In this document: piece after piece, positions 12,118-62,875 of the stretch
Layout of the letters: each line of letters opens with the position of its first letter
Position numbering within the stretch: position 1 is the stretch's first letter
NCBI GenBank assembly: GCA_965221775.1
Contig: CBDCSU010000005.1
Location: forward strand, 384,001-448,000
Length of the DNA stretch: 64,000 bases
Reading direction: 5' to 3'
Source of the DNA: Candidatus Latescibacterota bacterium
Lineage (GTDB): Bacteria; Latescibacterota; UBA2968; UBA8231
The notes under the pieces: generated by a model
Databases searched by the model: none
What the model saw: only the letters and a program-made list of their open reading frames with translations
What the model was told of the DNA's origin: nothing
Program-made: the position numbers and the translations under genes

Positions 12118-12145
12118 AGCCGGCGATGCCGCCAGCCGCGGTAAC

Positions 12146-16560: not shown

Positions 16561-16649
16561 ACGGGCGAGGCCTGCGGTCCGCAATCGGCGGAAGGTTGGA
16601 AGTCCAAGCCCATCAGTCAGTTACGATCGCTCGGCAGAAGCCCGCCGCC

Positions 16650-16678
16650 TTGCTCCGCAGCCGTCTCCGGGGTAACTT
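16650..16678 (+). promoter_or_regulatory. Putative leaderless sigma70 promoter of the coxD-like gene
   Basis: TTGCTC-N17-TAACTT, 7 nt before ATG 16686, no SD. Confidence 0.5.
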
Positions 16679-16685
16679 GGCCCCC

Positions 16686-17612
16686 ATGCCGAGCCCGGAG
16701 ACCGAAGGCCTGCAGCGCCAGCTGTCGGACCGCGGATACATCGCCGGCGCCGACATCTGCCTGTCCCTGCACCTGGCGCGGGAGCTGCGCAAGCCGCTGC
16801 TGGTGGAGGGGCCCGCCGGCGTCGGCAAGACCGAGATCGCCAAGGTCCTGGCCGACCTCCTCGGCACCGATCTGATCCGCCTCCAGTGCTACGAGGGCCT
16901 CGACACCAGCACCGCCCTCTACGAGTGGAACTACCAGCGCCAGCTGCTGCAGATCCGCATGGAGGAGCAGGGCGAGCGCTCCCTCGAGCAGCGCGAGGCC
17001 CACATCTTCTCCGAGCCCTTCCTGCTCAAGCGGCCCCTGCTGCAGGCGATCACCCACCACCGGGCGCCGGTGCTCCTCATCGACGAGCTCGACCGCGCCG
17101 ACGAGGAGTTCGAGAGCTTCCTCCTCGAGCTGCTCTCGGACTGGCAGATCACGATCCCGGAGCTGGGGACGATCCGGGCCACGCACGTGCCCCACGTGGT
17201 GGTCACGGGCAACCGCACCCGCGAGCTCTCCGACGCCCTGCGCCGGCGCTGCTTCTACCTGTGGATCGACTATCCCGACTTCGACAAGGAGCTGGCCATC
17301 GTCGGCGCCCGCGTCGACGGCATCGACGCCGACCTGGCGGCGCAGATCTGCCGCTTCATGGCCGGCGCCCGCCGCCAGCAGCTGGAGAAGCCCCCCGGCG
17401 TGGCCGAGACCCTCGACTGGGCGCGGGCCCTGGTGGCCCTGCACCGCCGCCACCTCGACGCCGCCACCATCGAGGAAACCCTCGGCCTCGTGTTCAAGGA
17501 CTACCACGACGTGACCCACGTGAAGCAGTCCCTGGCCGAGTTCCTGGAAAGCGTCGGGGTCCGCCCGGCCCCGGCCCCCGGCGCCGCGGCCTCCGATGCC
17601 GCCGGCTCCTGA
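16686..17612 (+). CDS. coxD: MoxR-family AAA+ ATPase (CoxD-like)
   Basis: EGPAGVGKTE, RLQCYEGLD, LYEWNY, LIDELDRAD, ALRRRC. Confidence 0.85.
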   Translation: MPSPETEGLQRQLSDRGYIAGADICLSLHLARELRKPLLVEGPAGVGKTEIAKVLADLLGTDLIRLQCYEGLDTSTALYEWNYQRQLLQIRMEEQGERSLEQREAHIFSEPFLLKRPLLQAITHHRAPVLLIDELDRADEEFESFLLELLSDWQITIPELGTIRATHVPHVVVTGNRTRELSDALRRRCFYLWIDYPDFDKELAIVGARVDGIDADLAAQICRFMAGARRQQLEKPPGVAETLDWARALVALHRRHLDAATIEETLGLVFKDYHDVTHVKQSLAEFLESVGVRPAPAPGAAASDAAGS

Positions 17613-46785: not shown

Positions 46786-47582
46786 TGGCCACCCGCATCG
46801 CCGTCTGCGGCCTCGGCGGCCGCATGGGCCAGCGCCTGGGCCACCTCGTCCTCGACGCCGACGACCTGGAGCTGACCGCCGCCAGCGAGCGGCCCGGCCA
46901 CGCGTGGCTGGGACGCGACGCCGGCGAGGTCCTGGGCCGCGGGTCCCTGGGCGTGAGCCTCCAGCCCTCCATCGCCGCGGCCGACGCCGACGTGGTCGTC
47001 GCCTTCACCACCCCGGAGGCCACCCTCGCCGACGCCGCCGCCAGCGCCGCCGCGGGCACGGCCATGGTCGTGGGCACCACCGGCATGTCGGCCGACCAGC
47101 TGGACGAGTTCCGCGCCGCCGTGGCCTCCATCGCCTGCGTCTTCGCGCCCAACTTCTCCACCGCCATGAACGTCCTCTTCAAGCTCGTGGAGGAGGCGGC
47201 GAGCATCCTCGGCGACGACTACGACATCGAGGTCGTGGAGGCCCATCACCGGCACAAGGTCGACGCCCCGAGCGGCTCCGCCCTGCGCCTGGCCGAACGG
47301 GCCGCCGCCGGCGTCGGGCGCAACCTCGACGAGGTCGCCGTCCACGGCCGCCAGGGAGAGACCGGCGAGCGCACGCGCAAGGAGATCGGCCTCCACGCCC
47401 TGCGCCTCGGCGACGTCGCCGGCGACCACTCGGTGTTCTACGGCGCCGCGGGGGAGTACCTGGAACTGCGCCACCACGCCACCAGCCGCGACGCCTTCGC
47501 CCTCGGGGCCCTGCGGGCGGCGCGCTTCGCCGCCGCCGCCGAGCCGGGGCTCTACGACATGGGGGACGTGCTGGGGTTGTAG
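46785..47582 (+). CDS. dapB: 4-hydroxy-tetrahydrodipicolinate reductase
   Basis: GRMG, VGTTG, APNFS, EAHHRHKVDAPSGSA. Confidence 0.93.
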   Translation: MATRIAVCGLGGRMGQRLGHLVLDADDLELTAASERPGHAWLGRDAGEVLGRGSLGVSLQPSIAAADADVVVAFTTPEATLADAAASAAAGTAMVVGTTGMSADQLDEFRAAVASIACVFAPNFSTAMNVLFKLVEEAASILGDDYDIEVVEAHHRHKVDAPSGSALRLAERAAAGVGRNLDEVAVHGRQGETGERTRKEIGLHALRLGDVAGDHSVFYGAAGEYLELRHHATSRDAFALGALRAARFAAAAEPGLYDMGDVLGL

Positions 47583-47586
47583 AGCT

Positions 47587-48384
47587 TCAGGAGGTGGAGG
47601 GGCTGCGCTCGGGGCTGGGGTTGAGGAAGGCGGGCCTCAGGGTGCGCAGCTTGTCGCGCAGGCGCGCCGCCTCCTCGAAGTTCTCGGCTTCCACGGCCAC
47701 GTGGAGGTCGCGCTCCAACTGCTCCTTCTGAGACAGGGGACGCTCCTTCTCCAGTTCCTCGTACCAGTCGGACAGGAAGGTCAGCTCGGGGCAGTCCTCG
47801 TCCATCAGGTCCTCCTCCCCCTCCCACTCGCCGAGGAACTGCTCGATGCGGTCGATGCCGCGCTGCACGTGGCGCAGGGCGGCGTCGTAGTCCTTGGCCT
47901 CGAGGGCGGCCATGGCCCGGGCCCGGGCCTGCATCATCACCGCGTGGGGCAGGTACTGCTCGAAGTACCACTTGACCTCGTCGCTGTCGGCGTGCTCGTG
48001 GACGAGGTCGAAGATGGCCAGGTTGTGCCCGGTGTCGCGCTCCACCCCCTCGTAGTCCTCCAGGAAGAACAGGGCGAGATAGCGCTGGTAGTACTGCCAG
48101 GCTTCCTGGAAGAGGTCCTCGCAGCTCTGCTCGTCGAGCTCGGGGCCGCTTCTGGGCAGCGATCCGGGGCGGCTGCGCAGGGACTGGCGGAAGTGATGGA
48201 GGAAGGACTCGGCGCCGTGGGGCCGGTGTCCGTCGGGGCGGCCGGAGACGTCGAGCTGGAGGATCCCCATGTCGATGCGGATCTGGATCTTCTCCGTGCC
48301 GTCCCGGGCGGTGATCCGGCGGGCGATGAACTCGTCCGGGTCGAAGGGCCACGAATTGAGCAGGTCACCGATGTCGTATTTCAT
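47587..48384 (-). CDS. UvrB/UvrC-motif-containing protein
   Basis: C-terminal AVEAENFEEAARLRDKL; N-terminal QIRIDMGILQL..GRPDG.RP. Confidence 0.75.
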   Translation of the reverse strand: MKYDIGDLLNSWPFDPDEFIARRITARDGTEKIQIRIDMGILQLDVSGRPDGHRPHGAESFLHHFRQSLRSRPGSLPRSGPELDEQSCEDLFQEAWQYYQRYLALFFLEDYEGVERDTGHNLAIFDLVHEHADSDEVKWYFEQYLPHAVMMQARARAMAALEAKDYDAALRHVQRGIDRIEQFLGEWEGEEDLMDEDCPELTFLSDWYEELEKERPLSQKEQLERDLHVAVEAENFEEAARLRDKLRTLRPAFLNPSPERSPSTS

Positions 48385-48459
48385 GGCCCCCCTTCGGCTT
48401 GTGTCACCAGAATATAGCCCTGCGCAGGGCCGTCCGCTACAAGGGAAGGGGGGCCCCGG

Positions 48460-49992
48460 CTAGCGCCGGGAGACCTTGATGCTGCCCACCGCGACGCCGA
48501 CGACGAGGGCGATGACGGCGGCGATGATCAGGGCGTTGCGGATCACCCGGGCGCGCTGCTCGACGCGGATGGTGATGTCCTTCTCCTGGGCCTCGATGCG
48601 CTCCGGGCCCTCGTACCCGGCGGCCTCGACGCGCACGTCGTACTCGCTGACGCCGATGCCGGCGGGCTGCACGAGGGTGATGTTCACCGGCTCCTTCTCC
48701 CCCGGCAGGATGCGGTCGATCGTGTCGGGCTCGGAGGACCAGGTCCAGTCGAGGGGCGGGGTCAGCACCAGGTGCACCCTCTCCACCTCCAGGGTCCCGG
48801 TGTTGAGCAGGTCGACGCGCACCTTCACCTCCTCGCCCGTGCGCACCTCCTGGTAGCGGTTGGCGATGAGGGTCTCGAGGGCGCCCCGGCCCCGGGGGAT
48901 GAGCTCGAAGCGCTCCTTGTTCCCGGGGATCGTGTTGATCTCCTCCAGGGGGATGGGGCCGCGGTGCTTGCGGTTCAGCTCGGCGATGCGCTCGAAGCCG
49001 GCGGCCTCGGTGACGAAGACGTAGAACTCGATCGTCTGGTCGACGTAACCGCGGCTGAGCTTCTCGGGGATCTGCAGCTCCAGCTCCAGCTGCTGGCGCG
49101 TCACCTCCTCGCTGAACTTCACCTGCGTGAGGTTGGCGTTGGTCCCCGGGTCGACGAAGGCGGGGGTGATCTCCCGCGGCAGGTTGACCAGGGCCAGGCG
49201 GAAGGTCTTCTCGTCCTCGGCGAGGCGCTCGAGGATGAGGTCGAAGTTGACCCGCGTGTTGAGGTCGCCCTCCTGGGAGAACTGGACCGAGTTGATCGTC
49301 GGCAGGTCCTGGCTCGACTCCCGGCGCATGACGATCTGCAGCAGCTCCTTGCTGCCGTCGAGGTAGGTGAGGTCGACGACCACGTCCTCGTAGTCCTGGA
49401 GCAGCCGGAAGGTGAGCCGCGTACGCTCGCCCAGGGGCAGGGAGGGCACGAGGATCTCGTAGGGCTCGGCGACGATCGTTCCGAGGCGCTCGGTGAGGGA
49501 GACCTTGAGGTTCTGGATCTCCAGCAGCGGCCGGATCTGGCTCTCGTCGCGGTCGGGGTTGAGAGACAGGGCCTGGCCGAGCTGGGAGGCGTTCTCCAGG
49601 ACGATATCGACCTGGCGGCGGCCGTCGAGGGTGCGGTACTTCCGCGCCTCGCGGATGGTGACGCGGGTGGCGTCCTTGAGGAACTCCAGGCGCGTGCGGT
49701 CGAGCTGGAAGACCGCCTCGCTGTACTTCAACTCCGACTGCAGGAAGGCGCGCCGGGCTTTGTTCAGGCTCTCGAGGGTTTCGATCTTCTCGTCGTAGAG
49801 CTCCTGGATGATGTCGTACTCGCTCTTGTTGTTGTCCATCTCCAGCTTGCGGCTCTCCACCTCCCACTGCGCCTTGCGCAGCTTGATGTCGTAGAGGCGC
49901 TGCTCCTTGGTGCGCAGGTCCTTGGTCGCCCCCAGGGGCGAGGCCAGGAGGCCGAGGAGGAAGACGCCCAGGCAGGCGCGGGCGGCGGTCAT
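48460..49992 (-). CDS. Exported hairpin + Ig-like/NEW3 domain protein with C-terminal TM anchor (paralogue B)
   Basis: Signal peptide, coiled-coil N-terminus, NEW3-like VDLLNTGT...PPLDW...ILPGEK...YDVRVEA, terminal TM followed by KVSRR. Confidence 0.75.
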   Translation of the reverse strand: MTAARACLGVFLLGLLASPLGATKDLRTKEQRLYDIKLRKAQWEVESRKLEMDNNKSEYDIIQELYDEKIETLESLNKARRAFLQSELKYSEAVFQLDRTRLEFLKDATRVTIREARKYRTLDGRRQVDIVLENASQLGQALSLNPDRDESQIRPLLEIQNLKVSLTERLGTIVAEPYEILVPSLPLGERTRLTFRLLQDYEDVVVDLTYLDGSKELLQIVMRRESSQDLPTINSVQFSQEGDLNTRVNFDLILERLAEDEKTFRLALVNLPREITPAFVDPGTNANLTQVKFSEEVTRQQLELELQIPEKLSRGYVDQTIEFYVFVTEAAGFERIAELNRKHRGPIPLEEINTIPGNKERFELIPRGRGALETLIANRYQEVRTGEEVKVRVDLLNTGTLEVERVHLVLTPPLDWTWSSEPDTIDRILPGEKEPVNITLVQPAGIGVSEYDVRVEAAGYEGPERIEAQEKDITIRVEQRARVIRNALIIAAVIALVVGVAVGSIKVSRR

Positions 49993-51512
49993 CGCCGGCT
50001 GATCCGGACGCTGGCCACGCCGATGCCGACGACGAGGAGGACGAGGATGCCGATGAGGATGACGTTGCCGGCGATGTTCGATCGCGCCCCCACGTGGATG
50101 GTCAGGTTCTTCTCCAGGGACTCCACGTTCTCGTTGCCCACCTGGCCCTGGGCCTCGACGCCGAGCTCGTAGTTGCCCACGGCGATGTCCGGCGGCGGCC
50201 GGGCGACGATGTCGAGGGGCGCGCGCTCGTCGGGCTCGAGGCGCTTGATGAGCAGGGGCGTCACCTCCTCCTGCCACTGGTAGGGCAGGTCGAGGGCGGC
50301 CTTGATGTTCTGCACCGCCACGCTGCCGCGGTTGAGGAACTCCACGCGGATGCGCAGGTCCTCGCCGGTCTGGATCTCGCGGTAGGTGTTGGAGACCAGG
50401 ACCTCGAGCTTGCCGATGCCCTTGGGGATGAGCTCGAGCTTGACGTAGTTGGCCCGCAGCCCCTGGAGTTCTTCCTCCGGCACCGGGTCGTCGCCGAAGC
50501 GCGCCCGGATGGCGTTGATGCGGGCGTACTCGCGCGGCTCGGTGACCAGGGCGAAGAACGGGCGCGCCAGGCCCACCAGGTTGCGGTCGAGCTTCTCGGG
50601 GATCTCGAGGACGAGGCCGAGGGTGTCCTTGGACTTGTTCTCGTCGAACTTCACCTGCGTGACCTTGGCGCCGGCGTTGCGGAAGGAGAAGTCGATCTTG
50701 CGCGGCAGGCCGAGGACGGCGAGGGCGAAGCTGCGCTCCTCGTCGGAGAGGCGCTCGAGGATGAGGTCGAAGCGCACGTCCTGCTGCAGCTCGCCCGACT
50801 GCGAGAACTGGGCGGAGTTGATGCTCGGCAGGTTCTCGCGCCCGCCCTTGCGCAGGGTGACGGGGATGCTCTCCAGGGTGTCGAGGTAGCCGAGGACCAC
50901 GGCCACCGCCTCCTCGTCGCGCAGGAGGCGGAAGGTCAGGGTGTGCCGCTGGCCCACGTCGAGGGCGGGGACGCGGGTCTCGTAGGGCTCGCCCACGAGG
51001 GGCCCGTTCTTGAGGGAGACGAAGATGTTCTCCACGCGCAGCAGGATCCGCAGGTCCTCCTCGGTGAGGGAGGGATCGACGACGAGGGCATCGCGCGTGT
51101 CGGAGGCGTTCTCCACGACGATGTCGACCATGCTCTTGCCGTCGGGGCTCTTGTACTTGCGGGCGTCGCGCACGACGATGTGGGTGGCGTTGCGCAGCAG
51201 CTCGAGCTTGGTCTCCTCCAGCAGGATCTCGGCCTCCTCCTTCTGCAGCCGCGCCTCGGCGTAGCTGTTCTGCGCCTGCTTGTAGGTGAGGAGGGGCACG
51301 AATCCCGAGTCGTGGAGGGCCCTTGTGAGGCGCAGCTCCTCCAGGGCCTGGTCGAGGCTGGTGCGGCGCTGCTCGAGCTGCAGCTGGCGCTCGTCGAGCT
51401 GCAGCTTGTCGAGCTGCTGCTGGCGCGTGAGGCCGGCCCCCGCGGGGGCCGCGGCGGCGTCCGCGGCGGCGGCGAGCAGAAAGCCGGCCAGAAGCGCGAA
51501 CCTCGCCCTCAT
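49989..51512 (-). CDS. Exported hairpin + Ig-like/NEW3 domain protein with C-terminal TM anchor (paralogue A)
   Basis: Same architecture as B; shared blocks ARKY..DG..VDIV.ENAS, EPYE, LP.INS.QFSQ.G, FDLILERL, L.IPEKL, ELIP.G.G.LE; terminal TM followed by RISRR. Confidence 0.75.
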   Translation of the reverse strand: MRARFALLAGFLLAAAADAAAAPAGAGLTRQQQLDKLQLDERQLQLEQRRTSLDQALEELRLTRALHDSGFVPLLTYKQAQNSYAEARLQKEEAEILLEETKLELLRNATHIVVRDARKYKSPDGKSMVDIVVENASDTRDALVVDPSLTEEDLRILLRVENIFVSLKNGPLVGEPYETRVPALDVGQRHTLTFRLLRDEEAVAVVLGYLDTLESIPVTLRKGGRENLPSINSAQFSQSGELQQDVRFDLILERLSDEERSFALAVLGLPRKIDFSFRNAGAKVTQVKFDENKSKDTLGLVLEIPEKLDRNLVGLARPFFALVTEPREYARINAIRARFGDDPVPEEELQGLRANYVKLELIPKGIGKLEVLVSNTYREIQTGEDLRIRVEFLNRGSVAVQNIKAALDLPYQWQEEVTPLLIKRLEPDERAPLDIVARPPPDIAVGNYELGVEAQGQVGNENVESLEKNLTIHVGARSNIAGNVILIGILVLLVVGIGVASVRISRR

Positions 51513-52912
51513 TCGACGTACCCCATCAGCCGCCGCAGCTCGGCCTGGCGCGAGATGTAGGTCTCCTGGTTCTGGAACAGGACCTCCTGGGCGGTGAAGA
51601 ACTGCTGGCGGAAGTTCTCCAGCACCGCCTCGTCCACCTGGCCCCCCTTCTCCTGCACCTGCTGCTTGATCTCCAGGCGGCGGCGGGCGATGACCACGCT
51701 CTTCTCCTGCAGGCGCTGGGTCTCCTCGGCCTCGAGCATCGACTGGTAGGCCTGGCGCACGCCCAGCTCCACCGAGGCCCTCAGGTCGCGCAGCTGCACC
51801 TGCAGGCCCTGCAGCCGGGCGCGCTCGAGGCCCTCGCGGCCCAGGCGGGCGCCGCCCTCGAAGATGGGGATGCGCGCCTGCACGCGGGCCGACCAGGTCG
51901 CCTCGCCCTCGTCCTCGGGCGGGTCCGCCTCGTCGAGGCTGAGGCCGGTCTCCACGCCGACGCCCCAGGTGCCGCCCTCGCGGCCGACGCTGAGGCCCGC
52001 CCGGCGGCGGCCGTCGCCGACGCCGGCGTCGGCGCTCAGGTCGGGGGCGTACTCCCAGCCGATCTCGCGCAGGACGCGCCGCTGCTCGTCGAGGAGCTGC
52101 TCGGTGACGCCGATCTCCACGTCGTGAACGAGGGCCCGGCCCACGGCCTCGTCCTGGTCGACGGCGAACGGTTCCAGCTCGCCGCCGAGGCGCAGGTCGA
52201 GGCCGATGGGGCGGCCGATGAGGCGCAGGAGCTCCATCTTGTCGCGCAGCTGCTCGCGCCGGATGCGGTTGATGCTCAGCTCCTCCTCCAGGACGTTGAG
52301 CTCGGCCTGCAGCTTCTGCTCCTCGGAGGCGAGGCGCTTCTCGAAGCGGGCCTGCTGGCGCGCGAAGGTGGCCTCGAAGTTCTGCCGCGAGGCGACGCGC
52401 AGGGCGATCTGCTGGTCCTTGAGCAGGATCAGGTGGTAGAGCTCCCAGACGCGGGAGCTGACCTCGTAGACCTTGTCCTGGTAGTCGAAGACGGCCTTGC
52501 GCAGATCGGCGCGCAGCTGGATCTCGGAAGCGGCGTCGGGGCCGAACTCGAAGAGGCGCTGCTGGAGCAGCAGCTCGCTGGCCAGCTGGTCGCGGGTGGT
52601 GGCGTCGCCCTCGGCGCGCAGGGCGTCGTAGCCGGCGGTGAGGCTCACCCGCGGCATCAGGCGGGAGCGGACGACGACGGCGTCGCTCTCGACCTCCTCG
52701 ATGCGCTTGCGGGCGCCGATCAGCTCGCGGTTGTGGGAGAAGGCCGCGGCGAGGCAGTCGGCCAGGCCGAGGGGCGCCGCCCGGGCGGCGGAGTCGGGCA
52801 CCGCCGGAGGCCCCTCCGCGACGGCGGGACCGAGGGCCGCGGCCACTCCCGCGATGACAACCGCCGTCCGCAGGTGGAGGGCCCGGGACGGCGAAAAGGT
52901 GAGCAAAATCAA
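51509..52912 (-). CDS. TolC family outer membrane efflux protein
   Basis: LADCLAAAFSHN, MPRVSL, QRLFEFG, second repeat APDLS...IPIFEGG, VRQAY, LRRLMG. Start (TTG ~52906-52912) uncertain. Confidence 0.82.
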   Translation of the reverse strand: MILLTFSPSRALHLRTAVVIAGVAAALGPAVAEGPPAVPDSAARAAPLGLADCLAAAFSHNRELIGARKRIEEVESDAVVVRSRLMPRVSLTAGYDALRAEGDATTRDQLASELLLQQRLFEFGPDAASEIQLRADLRKAVFDYQDKVYEVSSRVWELYHLILLKDQQIALRVASRQNFEATFARQQARFEKRLASEEQKLQAELNVLEEELSINRIRREQLRDKMELLRLIGRPIGLDLRLGGELEPFAVDQDEAVGRALVHDVEIGVTEQLLDEQRRVLREIGWEYAPDLSADAGVGDGRRRAGLSVGREGGTWGVGVETGLSLDEADPPEDEGEATWSARVQARIPIFEGGARLGREGLERARLQGLQVQLRDLRASVELGVRQAYQSMLEAEETQRLQEKSVVIARRRLEIKQQVQEKGGQVDEAVLENFRQQFFTAQEVLFQNQETYISRQAELRRLMGYVE

Positions 52913-52943
52913 TAGGTTCCGTAGGGTCTGGCAGATCGCGCTT

Positions 52944-52972
52944 ATCCTACTGGTGAAGGTGGACCATGTCAA
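52944..52972 (-). promoter_or_regulatory. sigma70 promoter of the tolC operon
   Basis: Minus strand TTGACA-N17-TAGGAT. Confidence 0.65.
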
Positions 52973-53006
52973 GATGGGGTTGCGCGCAAGCCATTGCTTG
53001 ACATGG
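52964..53006. repeat. Imperfect palindrome containing two back-to-back TTGACA boxes
   Basis: CCATGTCAAG-N23-CTTGACATGG with central TTGCGCGCAA. Confidence 0.8.
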
Positions 53007-53032
53007 GTCACGTACCCCCCGCACGTTACCTC

Positions 53033-53058
53033 TGTGGACCGCGGGTGTGGACCGCGGG
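53033..53058. repeat. 13-bp tandem direct repeat
   Basis: TGTGGACCGCGGG x2, upstream of the ABC ATPase. Confidence 0.85.
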
Positions 53059-53080
53059 CGACTTTCCCGGAGAGAGGCGA

Positions 53081-53803
53081 ATGCTCGAGATCATCGACAT
53101 GACCAAGCACTACGGCGACGTGCACGCCGTGAACGACCTCACCCTGACCATCGAGCCGGGCGAGATCTTCACCATGCTCGGCGCCAACGGCGCCGGCAAG
53201 ACGACCACCCTCATGGTGGCCCTCGGGTTCACCGAGCCGACGGCCGGGACGGTGAAGATCTGCGGCGTCGACGTCACGCGCGACCCGCTCGAGGCCAAGC
53301 GCCACGTGGCCTACGTGTCGGAGAACGTCATGCTCTACGGCAACTTCACGGCCCGCCAGAACCTCGAGTTCTTCACCAAGCTCGGGGGCCGCAAGCAGGT
53401 GGAGGCCTCGGAGTACGACCAGGTCATGGACCGCGTCGGCCTGCAGCGCGACGCCTTCGACCGGCGGGTGAAGGGGTTCTCCAAGGGCATGCGCCAGAAG
53501 CTCGGCATCGCCATCGCCATCATGAAGAACGCCGAGGTGATCCTCCTCGACGAGCCCACCTCGGGACTGGACCCCAAGTCGGGCGCCGAGTTCCTGCAGC
53601 TGCTGGCCGAGCTGCGCGAGGAGAACAAGGCGATCTGGATGACGACCCACGACATCTTCCGGGCCAAGCAGATCGCCGACCGCGTGGGCATCATGGTCGA
53701 GGGCAACCTGGTGAAGATCTTCACCCGCGACGAGCTCGGGCAGGAGGACCTGGAGTCGATCTACGTCGAGTTCGTGAGCCAACCCGCCGAGCAGGCGGCC
53801 TGA
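53081..53803 (+). CDS. ABC transporter ATP-binding protein
   Basis: GANGAGKTT, FSKGMRQK, LDEPTSGLD, TTHD. Confidence 0.92.
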   Translation: MLEIIDMTKHYGDVHAVNDLTLTIEPGEIFTMLGANGAGKTTTLMVALGFTEPTAGTVKICGVDVTRDPLEAKRHVAYVSENVMLYGNFTARQNLEFFTKLGGRKQVEASEYDQVMDRVGLQRDAFDRRVKGFSKGMRQKLGIAIAIMKNAEVILLDEPTSGLDPKSGAEFLQLLAELREENKAIWMTTHDIFRAKQIADRVGIMVEGNLVKIFTRDELGQEDLESIYVEFVSQPAEQAA

Positions 53804-53909
53804 CGGCCGTCGACGCCACCGGCCGCCGGCCCCGACCCGCCTTGCGCCCCCGCCCCCGCATGTCCCCGGTCCGCGGCGCCCCCGGGGCCGCGCTTCCATC
53901 GAGGCTTCC

Positions 53910-55295
53910 ATGCTCCTGCGACTGATCCGCAAGGAAGTCCTGCACAACATCCTGAGCTTCCGCTTCGCCGTCACCTACGGCCTGCTCTTCGTCCTCGTCC
54001 TGCTCGCCGTCTTCCTCATGGGCAACGAGCACCGTCAGCGCATGGAGACCTATACCCGGCAGGAGTCCCAGGCCCGCGACCGCCTGGAGGAGCTGGCCGG
54101 GATGCAGGACGCCACCGAGCAGTTCCGGCAGATCCAGCGCGAGGACTTCGCGGGGGTACGTCAGCCGGGGGCGCTGGCCGTCCTCGCCCGCGGTCTCGAG
54201 GGCAGCCTGCCGGCGCAGATCTCCTCCGGCGGCTGGTTCACCACGCACAGCTCCGAGGACCGCCTGGGGCGCAACATCCTCCTCGAGATCTTCCAGGCGC
54301 CCGACTTCGCCTACGTGGTCAACATGGTCCTGAGCCTGCTGGCCCTGCTCTTCGTCTTCGACTCCGTCTGCGGCGAGAAGGAGCGGGGCACCCTCAAGCT
54401 CCTGCTGTCGGGCTCGGTCCCCCGGGACACGGTGCTGCTGGGCAAGTGGGTGGGCGGCTACCTCTCCATCGCCGGGCCCTTCGCCGCCGCCGCCGCCGCC
54501 GGCTTCCTCTACCTCTCCCTCTCCGGCTCCCTGCCGCTCGAGACGGAGGTCGTCTCCCGTTTCGCCGCGATCCTCGCCGTCTCCTTCCTCTATATATCCG
54601 CCTGCTTCAGTCTCGGTCTGCTGATCTCCACCCTCGCCCACCGCGGCGCCACGGCCCTGCTCATGGCGCTGCTGGTGTGGATCGGCTGGATCCTGGTGGT
54701 GCCCAACCTGGCGCCTGTCGTGGCCCGCCTGGCGGCGCCGGTGCCGTCGCGCCAGGTGATCGACGCCGAACAGCAGGCCATCGACCGCGAGGCGGAACTG
54801 CTGATGGGGGCCATCCGCAAGAGCAAGGTCTACGGCGACCGGCAGCAGATGGAGCGCATCCAGGAGGAGACGGAGCAGCGCAAGCGCAAGCTCGACGGCT
54901 TCTACAAGGACCGCATGTCGCGCCAGACCTCCCTGAGCCAGAACCTGGCGCGCCTGTCGCCCTCGGCCAGCTATCTCCTCGCCGCCACCCGCCTCGCCGG
55001 CACCGGCCCCGACCTCTTCGCCCACTTCTCCGACGCTGTCGAGCGCTTCCACGGCGCCCACGACGACTTCCGCAGCCAGATGTACGGCAACGTCTCCTGG
55101 ACGCGGGGGCCCGATCCGGACATCCAGGACGAGGACTGGTTCGACCCCGACGACGTGCCCCGGCTGTCCATGTTCTCCGAGAGTCTCTCCGAGGCCTTCG
55201 ACGGGGCCCTCTTCGACATCCTGCTGCTGGTCGTCTTCAACGTGCTGTTCTTCCTGCTGTCGTACGTCTTCTTCCTCCGATACGACGTCACCTGA
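53910..55295 (+). CDS. ABC-2 type permease with large periplasmic loops
   Basis: IRKE..SFRF, GEKERGTLKLLL, VLLGKW, ARLSP, FLRYDV. Confidence 0.85.
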   Translation: MLLRLIRKEVLHNILSFRFAVTYGLLFVLVLLAVFLMGNEHRQRMETYTRQESQARDRLEELAGMQDATEQFRQIQREDFAGVRQPGALAVLARGLEGSLPAQISSGGWFTTHSSEDRLGRNILLEIFQAPDFAYVVNMVLSLLALLFVFDSVCGEKERGTLKLLLSGSVPRDTVLLGKWVGGYLSIAGPFAAAAAAGFLYLSLSGSLPLETEVVSRFAAILAVSFLYISACFSLGLLISTLAHRGATALLMALLVWIGWILVVPNLAPVVARLAAPVPSRQVIDAEQQAIDREAELLMGAIRKSKVYGDRQQMERIQEETEQRKRKLDGFYKDRMSRQTSLSQNLARLSPSASYLLAATRLAGTGPDLFAHFSDAVERFHGAHDDFRSQMYGNVSWTRGPDPDIQDEDWFDPDDVPRLSMFSESLSEAFDGALFDILLLVVFNVLFFLLSYVFFLRYDVT

Positions 55296-55315
55296 GCCGT
55301 TCCGGGAGAACGCCC

Positions 55316-56749
55316 GTGCTGCTGCACATCGTCCGCAAGGAACTCCTCGACCAGCTGCTGTCCCTGCGCTTCGCCATCGCCTGCGGCGTCTGCCTCATCG
55401 TCTTCGTCCTCAGCGCCGTGGTGCTCACGCGGGACTACCGCGAGGGCCTGTCGACGTACAACATGAACCGCGTCATGCACCGCAACGAGCTGCAGCAGCG
55501 CGACCAGATCTGGAGCCTGAACGAGGGAGTCACCGTCGACCGGCCCCTGAACCTCATGAACACGCTGGTGCGCGGCCTGTCGAAAGAGCTGACCGAGAGC
55601 GTCCGCGTGCAGCCCGGGAACCGCCTCGACTTCCCCGAGGGCTGGGAGCAGAACCCGGTGCTTCCCCTGTTCCCGCCGGTGGACTTCGTCTTCATCGTCG
55701 GCATCATCATGAGCCTCCTGGCCCTGGCCTTCGCCTACGACGGGGTCTCGGGCGAGGCCGAGACCGGCGTCCTCAAGCTGCTCATGTCGTACAGCGCGCC
55801 CCGCGACCTGGTGCTCCTCGGCAAGTGGCTCGGCGGCTACCTGGCCCTCATCGCGCCCTTCACCGTCTCCTTCGTCCTCGCCCTGCTCGTGGTTCTGCTG
55901 TTCCCCGACGTGCAGCCCGATACCGAGAGCTCGCTGGCCCTGCTCGCCCTCTACGGCCTCGCCCTGCTCTACCTGGGCGCCGTGTACAGCCTGGGCCTGC
56001 TCGTCTCCTGCCGCACCCGGCTGGCCTCGACCTCGATCACCGTCCTCCTGCTGTTGTGGGTCTCCCTGATCCTGGCGGTGCCGAACATGGCGCCGTACGT
56101 GGTCAGCCAGGTGGTGCCGATCCCCTCCGCCGAGGAGGTGGACCGCGAGAAGCAGGCCCTGCAGAGGGAGCAGCAGCAGCGGTTCCAGGAGATCATCGCC
56201 GAGGAGCAGGAGCGGCTCGGCCGCGACAACGTGTGGGGCGACGAGTCGGTGCAGGAGCGGTTCCGGGTGGCGGCGGAGGAGTCCCAGGCGGAGATACAGA
56301 AGATCGAGGACAGTTTCCGCACCCAGGTGGCGGGGCAGACGCGGCTCTCCGGCATTCTCGCCCGCATGTCTCCCCTGACCTCCTTCAACCTCGCCGCCTT
56401 CGACCTGGCCGCCGCCGGCATCGCCCAGGAGGAGGAGTGGGTGGCGAGCCTGGAGGCCTTCGGCGACACCTGGTCGGCGTACTCGGAGGAGAAGCAGCGC
56501 GCCTACAGGGAGTGGATCCATGAGCAGATGGCCGCCTCCCCCAGCGGCGGCGTGACCATCACGTCGCAGGACATGGAGCGGTTCAACCAGGACCTGGATC
56601 TGTCCGACGCGCCGCGGTTCAGCTTCTCCCACATGGGCGTTTCCGACCGCCTCGCCGCGGTCTACGTCGACCTGGCCTTGCTGGCCCTGTGGAACGTCGC
56701 CTTCTTCATGCTCGCCTACCTTTCCTTCCTGCGCTACGACATCAACTGA
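55316..56749 (+). CDS. ABC-2 type permease with large periplasmic loops (paralogue)
   Basis: VRKE..SLRF, GEAETGVLKLLM, VLLGKW, ARMSP, FLRYDI. GTG start with GGGAG RBS. Confidence 0.85.
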   Translation: MLLHIVRKELLDQLLSLRFAIACGVCLIVFVLSAVVLTRDYREGLSTYNMNRVMHRNELQQRDQIWSLNEGVTVDRPLNLMNTLVRGLSKELTESVRVQPGNRLDFPEGWEQNPVLPLFPPVDFVFIVGIIMSLLALAFAYDGVSGEAETGVLKLLMSYSAPRDLVLLGKWLGGYLALIAPFTVSFVLALLVVLLFPDVQPDTESSLALLALYGLALLYLGAVYSLGLLVSCRTRLASTSITVLLLLWVSLILAVPNMAPYVVSQVVPIPSAEEVDREKQALQREQQQRFQEIIAEEQERLGRDNVWGDESVQERFRVAAEESQAEIQKIEDSFRTQVAGQTRLSGILARMSPLTSFNLAAFDLAAAGIAQEEEWVASLEAFGDTWSAYSEEKQRAYREWIHEQMAASPSGGVTITSQDMERFNQDLDLSDAPRFSFSHMGVSDRLAAVYVDLALLALWNVAFFMLAYLSFLRYDIN

Positions 56750-56797
56750 CGCTGGCCCAACCCGGGCGACCGGGCCGATCGGGCCACAGGAGATTCC

Positions 56798-57727
56798 ATG
56801 GCCCATCACGAGTTCGTCCCCGGCCACTACCACAACACCCTCGGCTGGCACGAGCCGGTCCTGGAGGTCGCCCCGGGGGACTCGGTCTCGACGACCACCG
56901 TCGACGCCCGCGGCCGGGACCGCGACGGCGAGCAGGTGGCGGTCCGGGGCAATCCCCAGACCGGTCCCTTCCACGTCACCGGCGCCGAGCCCGGAGACGC
57001 CCTGGCGGTCACCCTCGACCTGGTGCGGCCGAACCGGCCCTGGGGCTTCACCGCCACCGCCGTGGCGCCCAACGTGCTCGACCCCGGGTTCCGGCCGCGC
57101 TTCGACGACGAGATCGAGGTCACCCGCTGGGCGGTGGACGCCGACGCCGGCACCGTCCGCCTCAGCGAGCCCGAGGGGCCCCTGTCGCGGCTCTCCCTGC
57201 CCCTGGACCCCATGGTCGGGTGCTTCGGCGTGGCCCCCGAGAGGGGCCAGGCGATCTCCACGGCCACCTCCCACCGCCACGGCGGCAACATGGACTACCG
57301 GGGGTTCCGCCAGGGGGTGACCGTCTGGTTCCCCGTCTTCGCGCCGGGGGCCCTGTTCCACATCGGCGACGGCCACGCCGTGCAGGGCGACGGCGAGATC
57401 GTCGGCACCGGGGTGGAGATCTCCTTCGACGTGCGCTTCACGCTGGACCTGGTGAAGGGCTCGTCCATCGGCTGGCCCCGGGCCGAGGACGACACCTGGC
57501 TGATGACGGCGGGCAACGCCCGGCCCCTGGACCAGTGCGTGCAGCACGCCACCACCGAGATGCTGCGCTGGCTGGAGACCGACCACGGCCTCGACGCCCG
57601 CACCGCCCACCTGCTCCTCGGCCAGGCGGTCGCCTACGACGTGGGCAACATCTACGACCCGGCGTACACCATGATCTGCAAGGTGAAGAAGAGCCACCTG
57701 AAGGCGATCCGCGGGGAGGCCGGATGA
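56798..57727 (+). CDS. Acetamidase/formamidase family protein
   Basis: NPQTGPF...GAEPGD, HGGNMD, GDGHAVQGDGE...GVE. Confidence 0.9.
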   Translation: MAHHEFVPGHYHNTLGWHEPVLEVAPGDSVSTTTVDARGRDRDGEQVAVRGNPQTGPFHVTGAEPGDALAVTLDLVRPNRPWGFTATAVAPNVLDPGFRPRFDDEIEVTRWAVDADAGTVRLSEPEGPLSRLSLPLDPMVGCFGVAPERGQAISTATSHRHGGNMDYRGFRQGVTVWFPVFAPGALFHIGDGHAVQGDGEIVGTGVEISFDVRFTLDLVKGSSIGWPRAEDDTWLMTAGNARPLDQCVQHATTEMLRWLETDHGLDARTAHLLLGQAVAYDVGNIYDPAYTMICKVKKSHLKAIRGEAG

Positions 57728-58711: not shown

Positions 58712-59725
58712 ATGTCCCCTGCCCTTCTTCTCCTCCTCCTGACCCTGGTGCCCGGCGCGCTCCTCGGCCAGGAGCGGCCACCGACGCCGGTCATCGTCGC
58801 CGAGGTCCTCGAACAGCCCCTCGTCGAGGATCTCTCCTTCGTCGGGCGCATCCTGCCCGTGCGTTCCAGCCGGGTCGCCGCCGAGACCGAGGGCAAGGTG
58901 GTGCAGCGGTTCAGGGACGCCGGCCAGACCGTGCGCGCCGGCGACCCCCTCTTCGCCCTGGCCAACGATCCGCTCCAGGCGGCGCTGGAAGAAGCGGAGG
59001 CCGATCTCGCGCTGAGGCGCTTCATCCACGACGGCAGCCGCCGGTTGCGCGCCACCGACTCGGTCTCGGAGCAGGACCTGCGCGTCAACGCCTTCGAGCT
59101 GGCGCGCGCCGAAGCCCGGCTGAGCGGCCTCCAGGCCCAGGTGGAGAACCTCCTCGTCCGCGCCCCCTTCTCCGGGCACATCGTCCGCACCTCCACCGAG
59201 GTGGGAGAGTGGGTCGGCCGCGGCGGCGAGATCGCCCAGGTGATCTCCATCGACACGGTGCGCGTCATCGTCGAGGTGCCCGAGCACCATGTGCCGCAGC
59301 TGGCCTTGGGGGACACCGCCGCCATCCTCGTCGACGCCCTCGGCGGCGATCCGGTCCACGGCCTCGTAACCGTCATCTCCGCCGAAGGCTACGCCGCCTC
59401 GCGCACCTTCCCGGTCGTCGTCGAGGCCGCCAATCCGGCAGGCCGCATGCGCAGCAACATGTCGGCGCGGGTGCGCTTCCGTATCGCCCAGGCGACGGCA
59501 TCGCTCCTGGTGCACAAGGACGCCCTGGTCTCCGGTCCTCGGGGGCAGGTGGTGTACCTCGCCCGCGACGGCAAGGCCCTCGGCCGCCCCGTCGAAGCCG
59601 GGCTGGCGCACCAGGGTTACGTGGCCGTCACGGGCGACCTCGCGCCCGGCGATCTGGCCGTGGTGCGCGGCAACGAGCGCCTCCGCGACGGCCAGGCGGT
59701 GCGCATCATCCGCCGGCAGCCGTAA
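58712..59725 (+). CDS. RND efflux periplasmic adaptor (membrane fusion protein)
   Basis: AETEGKV..GQTVRAGDPL, hairpin, RAPFSG, VPE, SRTF, GNERLRDG. Confidence 0.9.
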   Translation: MSPALLLLLLTLVPGALLGQERPPTPVIVAEVLEQPLVEDLSFVGRILPVRSSRVAAETEGKVVQRFRDAGQTVRAGDPLFALANDPLQAALEEAEADLALRRFIHDGSRRLRATDSVSEQDLRVNAFELARAEARLSGLQAQVENLLVRAPFSGHIVRTSTEVGEWVGRGGEIAQVISIDTVRVIVEVPEHHVPQLALGDTAAILVDALGGDPVHGLVTVISAEGYAASRTFPVVVEAANPAGRMRSNMSARVRFRIAQATASLLVHKDALVSGPRGQVVYLARDGKALGRPVEAGLAHQGYVAVTGDLAPGDLAVVRGNERLRDGQAVRIIRRQP

Positions 59726-59731
59726 GCCGCC

Positions 59732-62700
59732 ATGCGCCTGATCGCCACAGCCATCCAGCGGCCCGTCAGTGTCACCGTCGGCGTGCTCCTGGTGGCGCTC
59801 TTCGGCCTGATCTCCCTCTTCCGCATCCCCGTTCAGCTCACCCCCGACATCGACCGGCCGATCATCACCGTCTCCACGGTGTGGCCGGGCGCCAGCCCGG
59901 AAGAGGTCGAGCAGGAGATCGTCCAGCGCCAGGAGGAACAGCTCAGGAGCGTCGAGGGACTGGTGCTGATGACCAGCGAGAGCAACGACAGCCGCGGGGT
60001 CGTCTCCCTCGAGTTCAACGTCGGCGTCGATCCGGACGCGGTGATGCTGCTGGTCTCCAACAAGCTCGACCAGGTCTTCGGCTATCCCCTCGACGCCGAG
60101 CGGCCGGTGATCTCGGCCGGCGGCACCGGGCCGAGCGGGGCGATCACCTGGATCATGCTCCAGCCCCTGCCGGACCGCGGCGATCTGGATATCGAGCGCT
60201 ACCGCGACTTCGCCGAGGAGGTCATCAAGACCGCCCTCGAGCGCGTGCCCGGCGTCTCCCGGAGCGACATCTACGGCGGCTACGACCGCCAGCTCCAGGT
60301 CATCGTCGATCCCCGGGCCATGGCCGCGCGCCAGATCACCGTTCAGGACCTGGCCCGGGCCCTGGCCCGCGAGAACGCCAATACCAGCGCCGGGACCTTC
60401 GACGAGGGCAAGCGCCGCTACATCGTGCGCACCGTCGGTCAGTACCAGCAGCCCGGCGACATCGAGCAGGTGGTCGTCCGCTCGGCCGACGGCACCCGGG
60501 TCACCGTCGGCGAGATCGCCCGCACCCGCCTCGGCTACGTCCGCACCGTGGCCTCCGTGCGCCAGAAGGGCCAACCCGCCATCGCCATCAACGCCCGGCG
60601 CGAGACCGGGGCCAACGTCCTCGAAGTCATGGACGGCATCCGCCGCACCATCGGCCAACTCAACGAGGGGCCCCTGGCCCGCGAGGGCCTCTACCTCACC
60701 CAGGTCTACGACGAGACCGACTACATCGACAGCGCCATCGGCCTGGTGCGCTCCAACATCCTCATCGGCGGCACCCTGGCGGTGATGGTGCTCTTCATCT
60801 TCCTGCGCACCGTCAGCTCGGTGGCGATCATCGCCACCGCCATCCCGATCTCGATCGTCGGCACCTTTCTGGCCATGTGGCTCCTGGGCCGCAACATCAA
60901 CGTCATCAGCCTGGCGGGGATGAGCTTTGCCGTGGGCATGGTCATCGACAACGCCATCGTCGCCCTCGAGAACATCTTCCGCCACCAGCAGATGGGGAAG
61001 AGCCGCGCCCGCGCCGCCCTCGACGGGGCCACGGAGGTCTGGGGGGCGCTCCTGGCCAGCACCCTGACCACGGTGGCCATCTTCCTGCCCATCGTCTTCG
61101 TCGAGGACGAGGCCGGTCAGCTGTTCCGCGACATCGCCATCGCCGTCTCCTGCTCGGTGGTGCTCAGCCTGATCGTGGCCGTCTCCGTCATCCCCAGCCT
61201 GGCCAACAAGATCCTCGGCGGCGACAGACGCGGCGGGGGCCGGCTGGCCGCCTGGGGCGAAGGGGTGCGGACCTTCATCGCCCGGAGCGTCTTCCGCATC
61301 AGCGGCAGCACGGTGCTGCGCCTGGGGGTCATCGCAGGGCTGATCGGCCTCTCGGTGGCCATCGCCTGGAACCTGCTGCCCAAATCGGAGTACCTGCCCA
61401 CGGGCAACCGCAACCTGATCTTCGGCATCGTCCTGCCGCCCCCGGGGTACAACCTCGACGAGCTGATCCAGGTGGGCCAGACCGTCGAGGACGTCCTGCG
61501 CCCCCACTGGGAGGCGGCCTCGGACCCCGACGGCCCCCAGGCCCGAGCCCTGCCGGGACCGCCGATCGCCAACATGTTCTTCGTCGCCTTCGGCCGCTCC
61601 GCCTTCATGGGAGCGCGCTCGACCGAGCCGGAGCGGGTGCGCGAGCTGATCCCGATCATCCAGGGGCCGGTCCTGGGCGGGGTGCCGGGGACCTTCGCCG
61701 TCGTGCAGCAGTCGAGCCTCTTCCAGCGCGCCACCGGCAGCGGGCGCTCCATCGACATCGAGATCACCGGGCCCGATCTGGACCACCTCGTCGGGCTGGG
61801 GGGACGGGTATTCGGCCAGGTCCGGCAGGTCGTGCCCGGCGCCCAGGCCCGCCCCATTCCCAGCCTCGACCTGGGCAATCCGGAAGTCCGCATCCTCCCC
61901 GACCGCGTGCGCGCCGCCGACCTGGGCCTGTCGGCGCGCGACATCGGCTCGGCGGTCAATGCGCTGATGGATGGCGCCATCGTCGACGGCTACCAGTTCC
62001 AGGGCGAGGAGATCGACCTGGTGCTGCGGGGCGAGGAGGACTGGTTCCGCACCCAGGATATCGCCGCCCTGCCGATCTACACCCCGCGGGGCCAGCTGGT
62101 GCCGCTGAGTGCCGTGGCCCGCGTCGAAGTGACCACCGGCCCCGAGCAGATCAACCACATCGAGCGCGACCGGGCGATCACCGTCCGGGTCATCCCGCCG
62201 GAGACCGTTCCCCTGGAGACGGCCCTCGACGCGCTGCGGACCGAGATCGTCCAGCCCCTCGTCGATTCCGGCGATCTGGCCCCGCCCTACCAGATCCAGC
62301 TCTCCGGCTCGGCCGACGACCTGCGGCGCACCCGCCAGGCCTTGCAGTGGAACTTCCTGCTGGCCCTGGTGATCACCTACCTGCTGATGGCCGCCCTCTT
62401 CGAGAGCTTCCTCTACCCCTTCGTCATCATGCTCAGCGTGCCCCCGGCGCTGGCGGGCGGCATCCTCGGGCTGGAGGTCGTCAACCGGACGCTGACCTAT
62501 CAGCCCCTCGACATCCTCACCATGCTCGGCTTCGTCATCCTCATTGGCGTGGTCGTCAACAACGCCATCCTCATCGTCCACCAGACGCTCAACATCCTGC
62601 GGGAGGCGCCCGAGACCCCGCTCGGAGAGGCGATCCACGACGCCGTCTTCAGCCGCGTGCGGCCGATCTTCATGTCCACGATCACCAGCGCCCTGGGGAT

Positions 62701-62875
62701 GCTGCCGCTCGTCGTCTTCCCCGGCGCCGGGTCCGAGCTCTACCGGGGCCTGGGCAGCGTCGTCATCGGCGGCCTGCTGCTGTCCACCTTGTTCACCCTC
62801 TTCCTGGTGCCGACCTTCCTCAGCCTGGCGATGGATCTGAGAGCCTGGGTCGGCCGCGCCGGGAAGGCGATGTAG
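59732..62875 (+). CDS. RND efflux permease (AcrB/AcrD/AcrF family)
   Basis: PGASPEEVE, GMVIDNAIV..ENI, TLTTVAIFLP, RVRPIFMST, LFLVP; 1047 aa. Confidence 0.93.
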   Translation: MRLIATAIQRPVSVTVGVLLVALFGLISLFRIPVQLTPDIDRPIITVSTVWPGASPEEVEQEIVQRQEEQLRSVEGLVLMTSESNDSRGVVSLEFNVGVDPDAVMLLVSNKLDQVFGYPLDAERPVISAGGTGPSGAITWIMLQPLPDRGDLDIERYRDFAEEVIKTALERVPGVSRSDIYGGYDRQLQVIVDPRAMAARQITVQDLARALARENANTSAGTFDEGKRRYIVRTVGQYQQPGDIEQVVVRSADGTRVTVGEIARTRLGYVRTVASVRQKGQPAIAINARRETGANVLEVMDGIRRTIGQLNEGPLAREGLYLTQVYDETDYIDSAIGLVRSNILIGGTLAVMVLFIFLRTVSSVAIIATAIPISIVGTFLAMWLLGRNINVISLAGMSFAVGMVIDNAIVALENIFRHQQMGKSRARAALDGATEVWGALLASTLTTVAIFLPIVFVEDEAGQLFRDIAIAVSCSVVLSLIVAVSVIPSLANKILGGDRRGGGRLAAWGEGVRTFIARSVFRISGSTVLRLGVIAGLIGLSVAIAWNLLPKSEYLPTGNRNLIFGIVLPPPGYNLDELIQVGQTVEDVLRPHWEAASDPDGPQARALPGPPIANMFFVAFGRSAFMGARSTEPERVRELIPIIQGPVLGGVPGTFAVVQQSSLFQRATGSGRSIDIEITGPDLDHLVGLGGRVFGQVRQVVPGAQARPIPSLDLGNPEVRILPDRVRAADLGLSARDIGSAVNALMDGAIVDGYQFQGEEIDLVLRGEEDWFRTQDIAALPIYTPRGQLVPLSAVARVEVTTGPEQINHIERDRAITVRVIPPETVPLETALDALRTEIVQPLVDSGDLAPPYQIQLSGSADDLRRTRQALQWNFLLALVITYLLMAALFESFLYPFVIMLSVPPALAGGILGLEVVNRTLTYQPLDILTMLGFVILIGVVVNNAILIVHQTLNILREAPETPLGEAIHDAVFSRVRPIFMSTITSALGMLPLVVFPGAGSELYRGLGSVVIGGLLLSTLFTLFLVPTFLSLAMDLRAWVGRAGKAM

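Follow-up and report, generated by a model that had tools for sequence, protein, structure and literature searches.

The subject of this analysis is a window of 64,000 nucleotides (the whole stretch of DNA that was analysed, positions 384,001 to 448,000 of contig CBDCSU010000005.1, assembly GCA_965221775.1) from a Candidatus Latescibacterota bacterium, and within it two paralogous proteins, here called A and B, encoded directly behind the gene for a TolC-family outer membrane efflux protein (OEP). Judged from their sequences, the two proteins are probably a connector pair that links an inner-membrane ATP-binding cassette (ABC) transporter to an outer-membrane TolC-like channel. With a probability of about 0.65, A and B are taken to be the periplasmic adaptors of a tripartite ATP-driven exporter, in which they would act together with an ABC ATPase, two ABC-2 permeases and the TolC-family channel. 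This reading follows from the combination of an N-terminal hairpin with a sequence profile specific for membrane fusion proteins (MFPs), a generic stalk, the coupling to the OEP gene, and ABC-2 neighbours unaccompanied by a classical adaptor. The genes assigned to the system are listed below.

51509..52912, minus strand: the TolC-family OEP, which heads the OEP-A-B operon (Pfam OEP, E 6e-31, two repeats).
49989..51512, minus strand: protein A, 507 aa, with a signal-like N-terminus, a helical hairpin, three beta-sandwich domains and a C-terminal transmembrane (TM) helix.
48460..49992, minus strand: protein B, 510 aa, the paralogue of A with identical architecture, NEW3 at residues ~384-458.
53081..53803, plus strand: ABC ATPase, DrrA/GldA-like, divergent to OEP-A-B (Pfam ABC_tran, E 1e-30; NCBIfam drrA subfamily, 5e-58).
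53910..55295, plus strand: ABC-2 permease 1 (Pfam ABC2_membrane_2 and DUF3526), with large extracytoplasmic loops.
55316..56749, plus strand: ABC-2 permease 2, paralogue of permease 1 with 32% identity (tblastn and translation).

The G+C content of the window is ~70%, and real reading frames were picked out by their codon-position G+C. The third-position value (GC3) is 0.98 for the frames of both A and B, indicating that both are coding. The 605-aa open reading frame (ORF) listed for B is too long; a start at ATG 49992 provides B with a signal-like N-terminus, and this codon overlaps the TGA stop codon of A as ATGA. The OEP and A genes share the same stop/start overlap, and the ATGA at both junctions is a usual sign of translational coupling. 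Translation of the OEP probably starts with the TTG at 52912. An earlier note on this DNA had described the segment 48460..51512 as encoding two paralogues of ~510 aa, which agrees with the 507- and 510-aa products on the minus strand and with their 40% identity across 495 residues (E 7e-120).

Tripartite pumps are known with one adaptor plan, in which membrane-proximal, beta-barrel, lipoyl and hairpin domains are combined with an N-terminal anchor. In the available part of a 2026 adaptor review, only this canonical four-domain plan is given (PMC13328181). Protein A was modelled with AlphaFold2 (AF2) from a 26-row alignment, giving a mean predicted local distance difference test (pLDDT) value of 85.4 and a predicted template modelling score (pTM) of 0.47; a pTM of only 0.47 leaves the mutual orientation of the domains undefined. 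The model starts with a hydrophobic N-terminal segment, and its chain order is linear, comprising hairpin, three sandwiches and anchor, as listed below.

51186..51425, minus strand: antiparallel alpha-helical hairpin of A, residues 30-109 (AF2 block pLDDT 86-97).
50856..51179, minus strand: beta-sandwich domain 1 of A, residues 112-219 (AF2).
50463..50825, minus strand: beta-sandwich domain 2 of A with a helical appendix, residues 230-350 (AF2; sandwich 230-324, helices 326-350).
50088..50453, minus strand: NEW3/NPCBM-associated beta-sandwich of A, residues 354-475 (Pfam PF10633, E 2.1e-11).
49995..50075, minus strand: C-terminal TM helix of A, residues 480-506, with the basic SRR terminus behind it (AF2, sequence inspection).

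The hairpin consists of a helix at residues 30-68, a five-residue turn (69-73) and a second helix at 74-109, matching the ~80-aa antiparallel hairpin that the earlier note had placed at the N-terminus. The three beta-rich domains that it had proposed, the last of them NEW3-like, are likewise present in the model, and PF10633 (NEW3/NPCBM_assoc) is matched by A with 44.3 bits and by B with 44.4 bits (Pfam gathering cut-off 24.4) as well as by all members (79/79) of a diverse set from the protein family. On inspection and by a hydropathy script, the signal-like N-terminus and the single C-terminal TM ending in SRR that the earlier note had described both appear to be present. Among the 79 members, the C-terminal 19-mer is hydrophobic in all (79/79), with 2-4 Arg/Lys among the last six residues, and an N-terminal hydrophobic stretch is found in 74. 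The N-terminus of A (...AAADA/AAAP, without a lipobox) looks like a cleavable Sec signal, though it may be an uncleaved anchor.

Fold searches match the stalk domains to generic beta-sandwiches only. For the NEW3 domain of A, VIA gives Z scores of 11-12 to glycosidase accessory domains. With a separate model of residues 110-355 (pLDDT 88.5), the best VIA match is an enterococcal adhesin domain (Z 9.1), followed by glycosidase Ig-like domains and HAP2 domain III, while Foldseek returns transglutaminase and CEP192 tandem sandwiches. Lipoyl or beta-barrel MFP domains are absent from the VIA and Foldseek lists for residues 110-355, a weak negative since these lists are dominated by generic sandwiches. 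Foldseek with the whole model against the PDB returns only tandem-Ig proteins (integrins, ciliary proteins) and is uninformative. In sequence searches, Biotin_lipoyl, HlyD_3 and HlyD_D23 have no match in A, B or any of the 79 members at E<=0.01, bearing out the earlier statement that no lipoyl or beta-barrel adaptor motifs are visible, while two positive controls, the MFP of the window and that of locus L003, match the HlyD_3/HlyD_D23 families at about 1e-23. Helix 1, starting at residue 30, follows immediately on the signal-like segment; no space is left there for an N-terminal lipoyl half-domain, and the hairpin cannot be a lipoyl insertion. NCBIfam assigns A and B to no family (0 matches). 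A Pfam match of A residues 18-115 to Aminotran_1_2 (E 1.9e-4), seen in 1/79 members, was rejected as a chance coiled-coil match.

The hairpin of A and B is, by its sequence profile, related to the HlyD/AcrA-type adaptor hairpin. When the family profile was run against all PDB sequences, MFP hairpins ranked first, aligned hairpin to hairpin, with E-values of 2.3e-4 for MexJ, 0.022 for a MacA/MexA chimera, 0.04 for MexA, 0.09 for 4l8j (a Bacteroides adaptor) and 0.9 for ZneB, and only 3 for OprM. In a six-frame search of the genome to which the window belongs, the sole profile match beyond A and B is an HlyD-family MFP (residues ~88-161, E 1.8e-4). An hhalign comparison of the hairpin columns of the 79 members with an alignment of the 16 MFPs of this genome gives a probability of 94.7% (P 5.9e-8) with the tip in register, compared with 0.4% (P 0.13) for a reversed-sequence control and 36% (P 3.8e-4) for eight partner OEPs. 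Weak Pfam OEP matches (A, E 0.009; 5/79 members) had raised the idea of a TolC-like hairpin, which was dropped given the hhalign preference for MFPs (94.7% vs 36%). In VIA, the hairpin matches HlyD (Z 11.0, 1.9 Å, 82 residues), EmrA (Z 11.0) and AcrA (Z 10.7, 1.5 Å, 79 residues), which top the helical list. One relative is labelled by JGI as ‘multidrug efflux pump subunit AcrA (membrane-fusion protein)’, and several others carry precomputed matches to PF25885, PF25876 and PF25893, presumably MFP helical-hairpin families.

A and B are nevertheless not HlyD-family adaptors, as three defining features of these fail. They resemble HlyD, AcrA and MacA in the antiparallel hairpin with heptad-step lengths and detectable sequence similarity, in the presence of three beta-rich domains between hairpin and membrane, and in the linkage of their genes to an OEP and an inner-membrane transporter. 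They differ in the absence of lipoyl, beta-barrel and membrane-proximal domains (0/79 members by sequence), in a linear chain with the hairpin within ~8 residues of the predicted mature N-terminus, whereas MFPs are nested, in a C-terminal TM helix as the predicted anchor, where MFPs have an N-terminal lipid or helix, and in a stalk of Ig-like/NEW3 sandwiches.

At the hairpin tip of MacA, AcrA and MexA, the RLS motif RxxxLxxxxxxS (RLT in HlyD) forms the TolC-binding interface, according to the part of PMC3391258 available. Across the 79 members, the tip columns hold Leu in 70, Ser/Thr in 62, Gly between these in 51 and, four positions ahead of the Leu, Arg in 33. Two hairpin lengths occur: 48/79 members are shorter by exactly seven residues in both arms, one is shortened by seven in a single arm, and the remaining 30 are of the long class. 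Such paired seven-residue (heptad) changes in both arms are what an antiparallel coiled coil demands, and AcrA and MexA are likewise reported to differ by seven residues (PMC13328181, in the available part). The Arg is restricted to short hairpins (33/48 short vs 0/31 long), and the full RxxxLxxxxxx[S/T] occurs in 24/48 short-hairpin members and in no long one. The earlier note had likened the turns of A and B to the hairpin tip of a canonical adaptor in the window, and the tip strings it quoted for all three proteins are present as stated; that of the canonical adaptor, SRRLRATDSVSEQDL, lies at residues ~109-123 of the window's MFP (58712..59725). The pattern L-x6-[S/T]-x2-[D/E]-hydrophobic of this MFP is found partly in B and weakly in A. 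The MFP belongs to a canonical resistance-nodulation-division (RND) pump (HlyD-family adaptor and AcrB-type permease) at 58712..62875 on the plus strand, 6 kb from the cluster. Its hairpin has L-x6-S, and the RLS Arg is likewise missing at the standard spacing.

The gene neighbourhood was compared in 23 loci (denoted by L numbers) picked from 22 genomes of the phylum; of these loci, 12 are spread over seven taxonomic families and 11 are of the window's taxonomic family. The OEP gene directly adjoins the A-like gene in 19/23 loci, 21/23 contain an orthologous ABC ATPase (54-99% identity), and 20/23 contain ABC-2 permeases, in one to five paralogues; the second ABC-2 permease of the window is also found in L043. 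A Pfam search of 111 ORFs from 10 loci found no classical adaptor in the cluster, the sole HlyD-type match lying in a separate ABC2_membrane_6 system. The OEP of the window is 51% identical to that of L026 and 35-37% identical to those of L021 and L015.

A and B are derived, as far as their phylogeny tells, from one old duplication of which both copies were retained. A maximum-likelihood tree was calculated for 29 proteins, comprising A and B of the window, 10 further A and 9 further B proteins (12 loci) and 8 single-copy forms; L043 B, L049 A and B, L044 A and L046 B (both lacking a clean start) and the proteins of L020, L025 and L026 were left out. It supports an A clade (96/93), a B clade (99/96) and the separation of A+B from the single-copy forms (100/98). 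The pair of L021, a locus of another taxonomic family, stands at the base of both the A clade and the B clade, and the duplication therefore predates two taxonomic families. Genomes of the window's taxonomic family usually have two copies side by side, and those of other families mostly one. The OEP-A-B tandem is present in 11/11 loci of the window's family, and the pair is in tandem in all 12 pair-bearing loci (L021, L043-L053). The tips are clade-specific, with A keeping Gly-Phe at the turn and B Lys/Arg/Asn-Ile, a pattern that by analogy with TriA/TriB would be expected of two non-equivalent subunits in one ring.

TriA and TriB are 36% identical and both are needed (PMC13328181, in the available part). 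Like A and B, with their 40% identity, they are a paralogous adaptor pair encoded side by side and both kept (TriABC-OpmH of P. aeruginosa). The TriA/TriB pair, however, consists of classical MFPs and serves an RND pump, and its non-equivalent roles were shown by experiment, whereas the case for A and B consists of conservation, clade-specific tips and a weak pass of a complex model. The model in question is a complex of the periplasmic parts of A (residues 26-478) and B (24-481), built from custom alignments, so that the calibration counts hold only roughly. It scores 0.60 (runs 0.60, 0.59 and 0.62), the best of three controls scoring 0.00, with at least 76% of contacts shared between runs and a partner pLDDT of at least 80. 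In the calibration, the pass mark was reached by 116/157 solved complexes and 2/215 mismatched pairs; at scores up to 0.60 it was reached by 18/157 solved complexes and by both passing mismatches. A- and B-like proteins may, on this model, pack side by side, be it in a mixed or in a uniform ring. A hetero-ring of A and B is plausible in view of the two clades kept in tandem.

The family is large. An exhaustive HMMER search over 1.84 billion cluster representatives (50% identity clusters) returned 1384 proteins with a threshold of E<=1e-3, and 227 clusters when this was tightened to E<=1e-30. The best 150 matches are mostly full-length (470-560 aa), and ten odd-length or partial matches that were inspected all open with a signal-like segment and a hairpin (10/10). 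In the phylum, the close family is present in 79/168 genomes, and in 19/52 of the high-quality ones. The few named relatives (Latescibacterota 10, Aminicenantes 3, Gemmatimonadota 1) are all of diderm phyla, save one record labelled Bathyarchaeia, and protein-atlas clusters name Gemmatimonadota and Latescibacterota. Source databases label relatives ‘NEW3 domain-containing protein’. Membrane proteins with NEW3 (PF10633; ‘uncharacterized membrane protein’, JGI) share with A and B the last sandwich and the C-terminal TM anchor; by contrast, that name covers one domain, and the N-terminal hairpin and the OEP linkage lie outside the descriptions found. A literature search, largely excluding subscription journals, found no paper describing the hairpin-Ig-TM architecture or its OEP linkage, and the A/B-type connector protein is apparently undescribed so far. 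Two kinds of unusual form occur among the relatives. P0117, P0121 and P0123 (718-797 aa) contain beta domain 1 in 3-4 copies between the hairpin and domain 2. In P0250 (892 aa), an ABC-2 permease precedes a full A-like protein, whose signal-like segment serves as a seventh TM helix; this could be a gene-calling artefact (missed stop) instead of a true fusion.

In the proposed mechanism, A and B would be exported by Sec through their N-terminal signal sequence and held in the inner membrane by the C-terminal TM helix, with the SRR end predicted by the positive-inside rule to be cytoplasmic. The three beta-sandwiches would serve as a stalk beside or around the periplasmic loops of the permeases, and would carry the hairpin, the part most distant from the anchor, to the OEP tip. 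With 39 and 36 residues, its helices would be about 55 Å long, and the hairpin would meet the periplasmic tip of the OEP trimer. A and B would alternate in one ring, probably A3B3 and most likely as TriA and TriB do, and the substrate taken up by the ABC-2 engine would leave via the channel, driven by ATP. Judged from the sequence, TM1 of both permeases (53910..56749) is followed by a loop of ~90 residues, and their last TM is preceded by one of ~170 residues that is mostly helical and charged; on the expected topology, these loops would sit in the periplasm beside the stalk.

Several observations weigh against this scheme. A and B, both with long hairpins, lack the RLS Arg, like all long-hairpin members (31/31). 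The three motif positions are L62, L66 and P73 in A, with Pro replacing Ser, and Ile, Leu and Thr in B, and neither protein carries the full RLS docking motif. F-BAR, SMC and ROP hairpins reach VIA Z scores of 10.0-10.5, with the MFPs hardly above them, and the modelled hairpin structure by itself is not decisive for MFP kinship. No OEP gene is found nearby in 4/23 loci, namely L016, L018, L022 and L025. Of these, L016 and L022 belong to one taxonomic family, and the contig of L018 stops 549 bases past the A-like gene. The 3-4 copies of domain 1 in the longest relatives lengthen the stalk greatly, which is hard to fit to a fixed distance between inner membrane and channel tip. In L026, the OEP-A-B trio is adjoined by a MacB-type permease with no ABC-2 set, and the inner-membrane partner may vary. 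Part of this evidence would fit A and B being cell-envelope accessories to the ABC-2 transporter and belonging to the widespread ‘NEW3 domain plus C-terminal TM’ proteins, with the hairpin as an oligomerisation coiled coil and the OEP using an unlinked adaptor. The RLS motif is incomplete in both proteins, many unrelated helical hairpins superpose equally well, the link to the ABC ATPase (21/23 loci) is at least as tight as that to the OEP (19/23), and the 16 classical MFP genes of the genome could in principle serve the OEP. Such a role is nonetheless considered unlikely: the profile singles out MFP hairpins while the reversed control fails, the OEP and A genes are translationally coupled here and adjacent in 19/23 loci, and no classical MFP gene is present among the clusters examined. 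The earlier proposal of a TolC-docking hairpin placed on an unrelated Ig stalk is supported in its MFP-like hairpin, generic stalk and OEP context, and falls short at the docking motif.

A different arrangement, in which A and B are adaptors in separate homo-oligomers, for example for different inner-membrane engines or conditions, has a small probability, comparable to that of the accessory-subunit role. A single copy suffices in most lineages (one match per genome outside the window's family; single-copy clade), the MacB-type permease by the L026 trio hints at more than one engine, and the complex model cannot distinguish a hetero- from a homo-oligomer because A and B are paralogous. On the other hand, the A/B ATGA overlap favours equal amounts, the tandem pair has been kept in 12/12 pair-bearing loci since a duplication older than two taxonomic families, and the tips have diverged clade-wise, with Gly in A and Lys/Arg/Asn in B. 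The alternating TriA/TriB-like hetero-hexamer of the earlier note accordingly gains from the two clades kept in tandem, and draws little from a complex model that passes weakly and is blind to this distinction. Sandwich arrays of the NEW3/CARDB type, when combined with a C-terminal TM and a basic tail, are characteristic of surface proteins that are anchored, and A and B might instead be cargo, or anchored surface-layer-like envelope proteins, exported by the ABC/OEP system or merely encoded beside it; the fold matches to adhesin and glycosidase accessory domains agree with this. Such an origin is, however, very improbable, as the TM helix and basic end are present in 79/79 members, no known C-terminal sorting-signal model was matched in NCBIfam, the Sec-type N-terminus removes the need for export by a TolC route, and neither the permease-adaptor fusion P0250 nor an MFP-like hairpin is expected of cargo.

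As adaptors, A and B have their closest counterparts by function in MacAB-TolC and YbhGFSR. In E. coli YbhGFSR, two permease paralogues belong to an ABC-2 engine, and the adaptor is an MFP, YbhG, which is thought to reach TolC (PMC7190983, in the available part). Common to these systems and that of the window are an ABC ATPase with permeases, an adaptor encoded in the cluster and a TolC-type channel. YbhGFSR and MacAB-TolC, however, use a classical MFP as adaptor and have their TolC gene at another site, whereas here an A/B pair is present and a dedicated OEP heads the operon. MacB is an FtsX-type permease, unlike the ABC-2 permeases of the window. A bolder proposal, which is tentative and more doubtful than the adaptor role itself, is that A and B represent a second, independently built adaptor class, arisen by placing an MFP-type hairpin on a NEW3/Ig ABC-2 subunit; the A3B3 ring would be obligate, the two tips would fit two non-equivalent OEP grooves, and docking would follow an Arg-less code unlike that of AcrA, MacA and HlyD.

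If A/B-type proteins are adaptors, the hairpin would be the one indispensable docking module and the remainder of an adaptor could be rebuilt from other parts, as this large family (227 clusters, E<=1e-30) retains the hairpin only and swaps the rest for a linear Ig-like stalk and a C-terminal anchor. ABC-2 exporters of the little-studied Latescibacterota, Gemmatimonadota and Aminicenantes would also gain an outer-membrane route, and the matching of a two-fold transporter to a three-fold channel could be studied in a natural system. Hairpins of two lengths, stalks of varying size and the A/B split offer material on the co-evolution of adaptor length and tip chemistry with the channel, and are of interest for research on efflux and envelope-spanning transport.

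Two further features adjoin the cluster in the window.

52944..52972, minus strand: sigma-70-like promoter TTGACA-17-TAGGAT, ahead of the OEP gene and between it and the divergent ABC ATPase gene (consensus match only).
47587..48384, minus strand: UvrB/C-motif protein, 265 aa, 75 nt downstream of B (Pfam UVR, 1e-7, C-terminal motif; weak McsA-like match).

The promoter-like site is the only one in 47400..57000 (shuffle mean 0.3), and a terminator scan gave nothing convincing 3' of B. The start codon of the ABC ATPase is the ATG at 53081, preceded by a GGAGAG-type ribosome-binding site. A UvrB/C-motif gene lies downstream of B in 6/11 loci of the window's taxonomic family; no signal or TM features were noticed in the window's protein, and its membership in the exporter system is uncertain.

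Further observations concern the other loci. The MacB-type permease of L026, a locus of the window's taxonomic family, is an 822-aa protein (MacB_PCD and FtsX; L026:11308-13776, plus strand) encoded 3' of OEP-A-B; A-like genes also occur as single copies within other ABC-2 clusters of that genome (L020). The single-copy clusters of L017, L024, L016 and L022 contain 4-5 paralogous ABC-2 permeases (ABC2_membrane_2, often with DUF3526) per ATPase gene, an unusual surplus of membrane subunits. In two distant genomes, a histidine kinase and a sigma-54-dependent response regulator are encoded directly upstream (L017:3591-6264, L018:351-3265), which suggests regulated expression in these loci; no such two-component pair is present near the cluster of the window. 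The neighbours hold no consistent hint of the substrate. Genes for heparinase II/III-like lyases flank three loci (L015:5323-7302; L023:5330-7414 and 16225-17601; L022:3-1448), making a glycan-related substrate possible, and DsbA/thioredoxin genes flank two loci. In L016, two identical-looking DUF772 transposase genes (L016:2645-4171 and 11082-12608) interrupt and flank the permease array of a cluster that has no OEP gene, suggesting that this OEP-less cluster may be rearranged.

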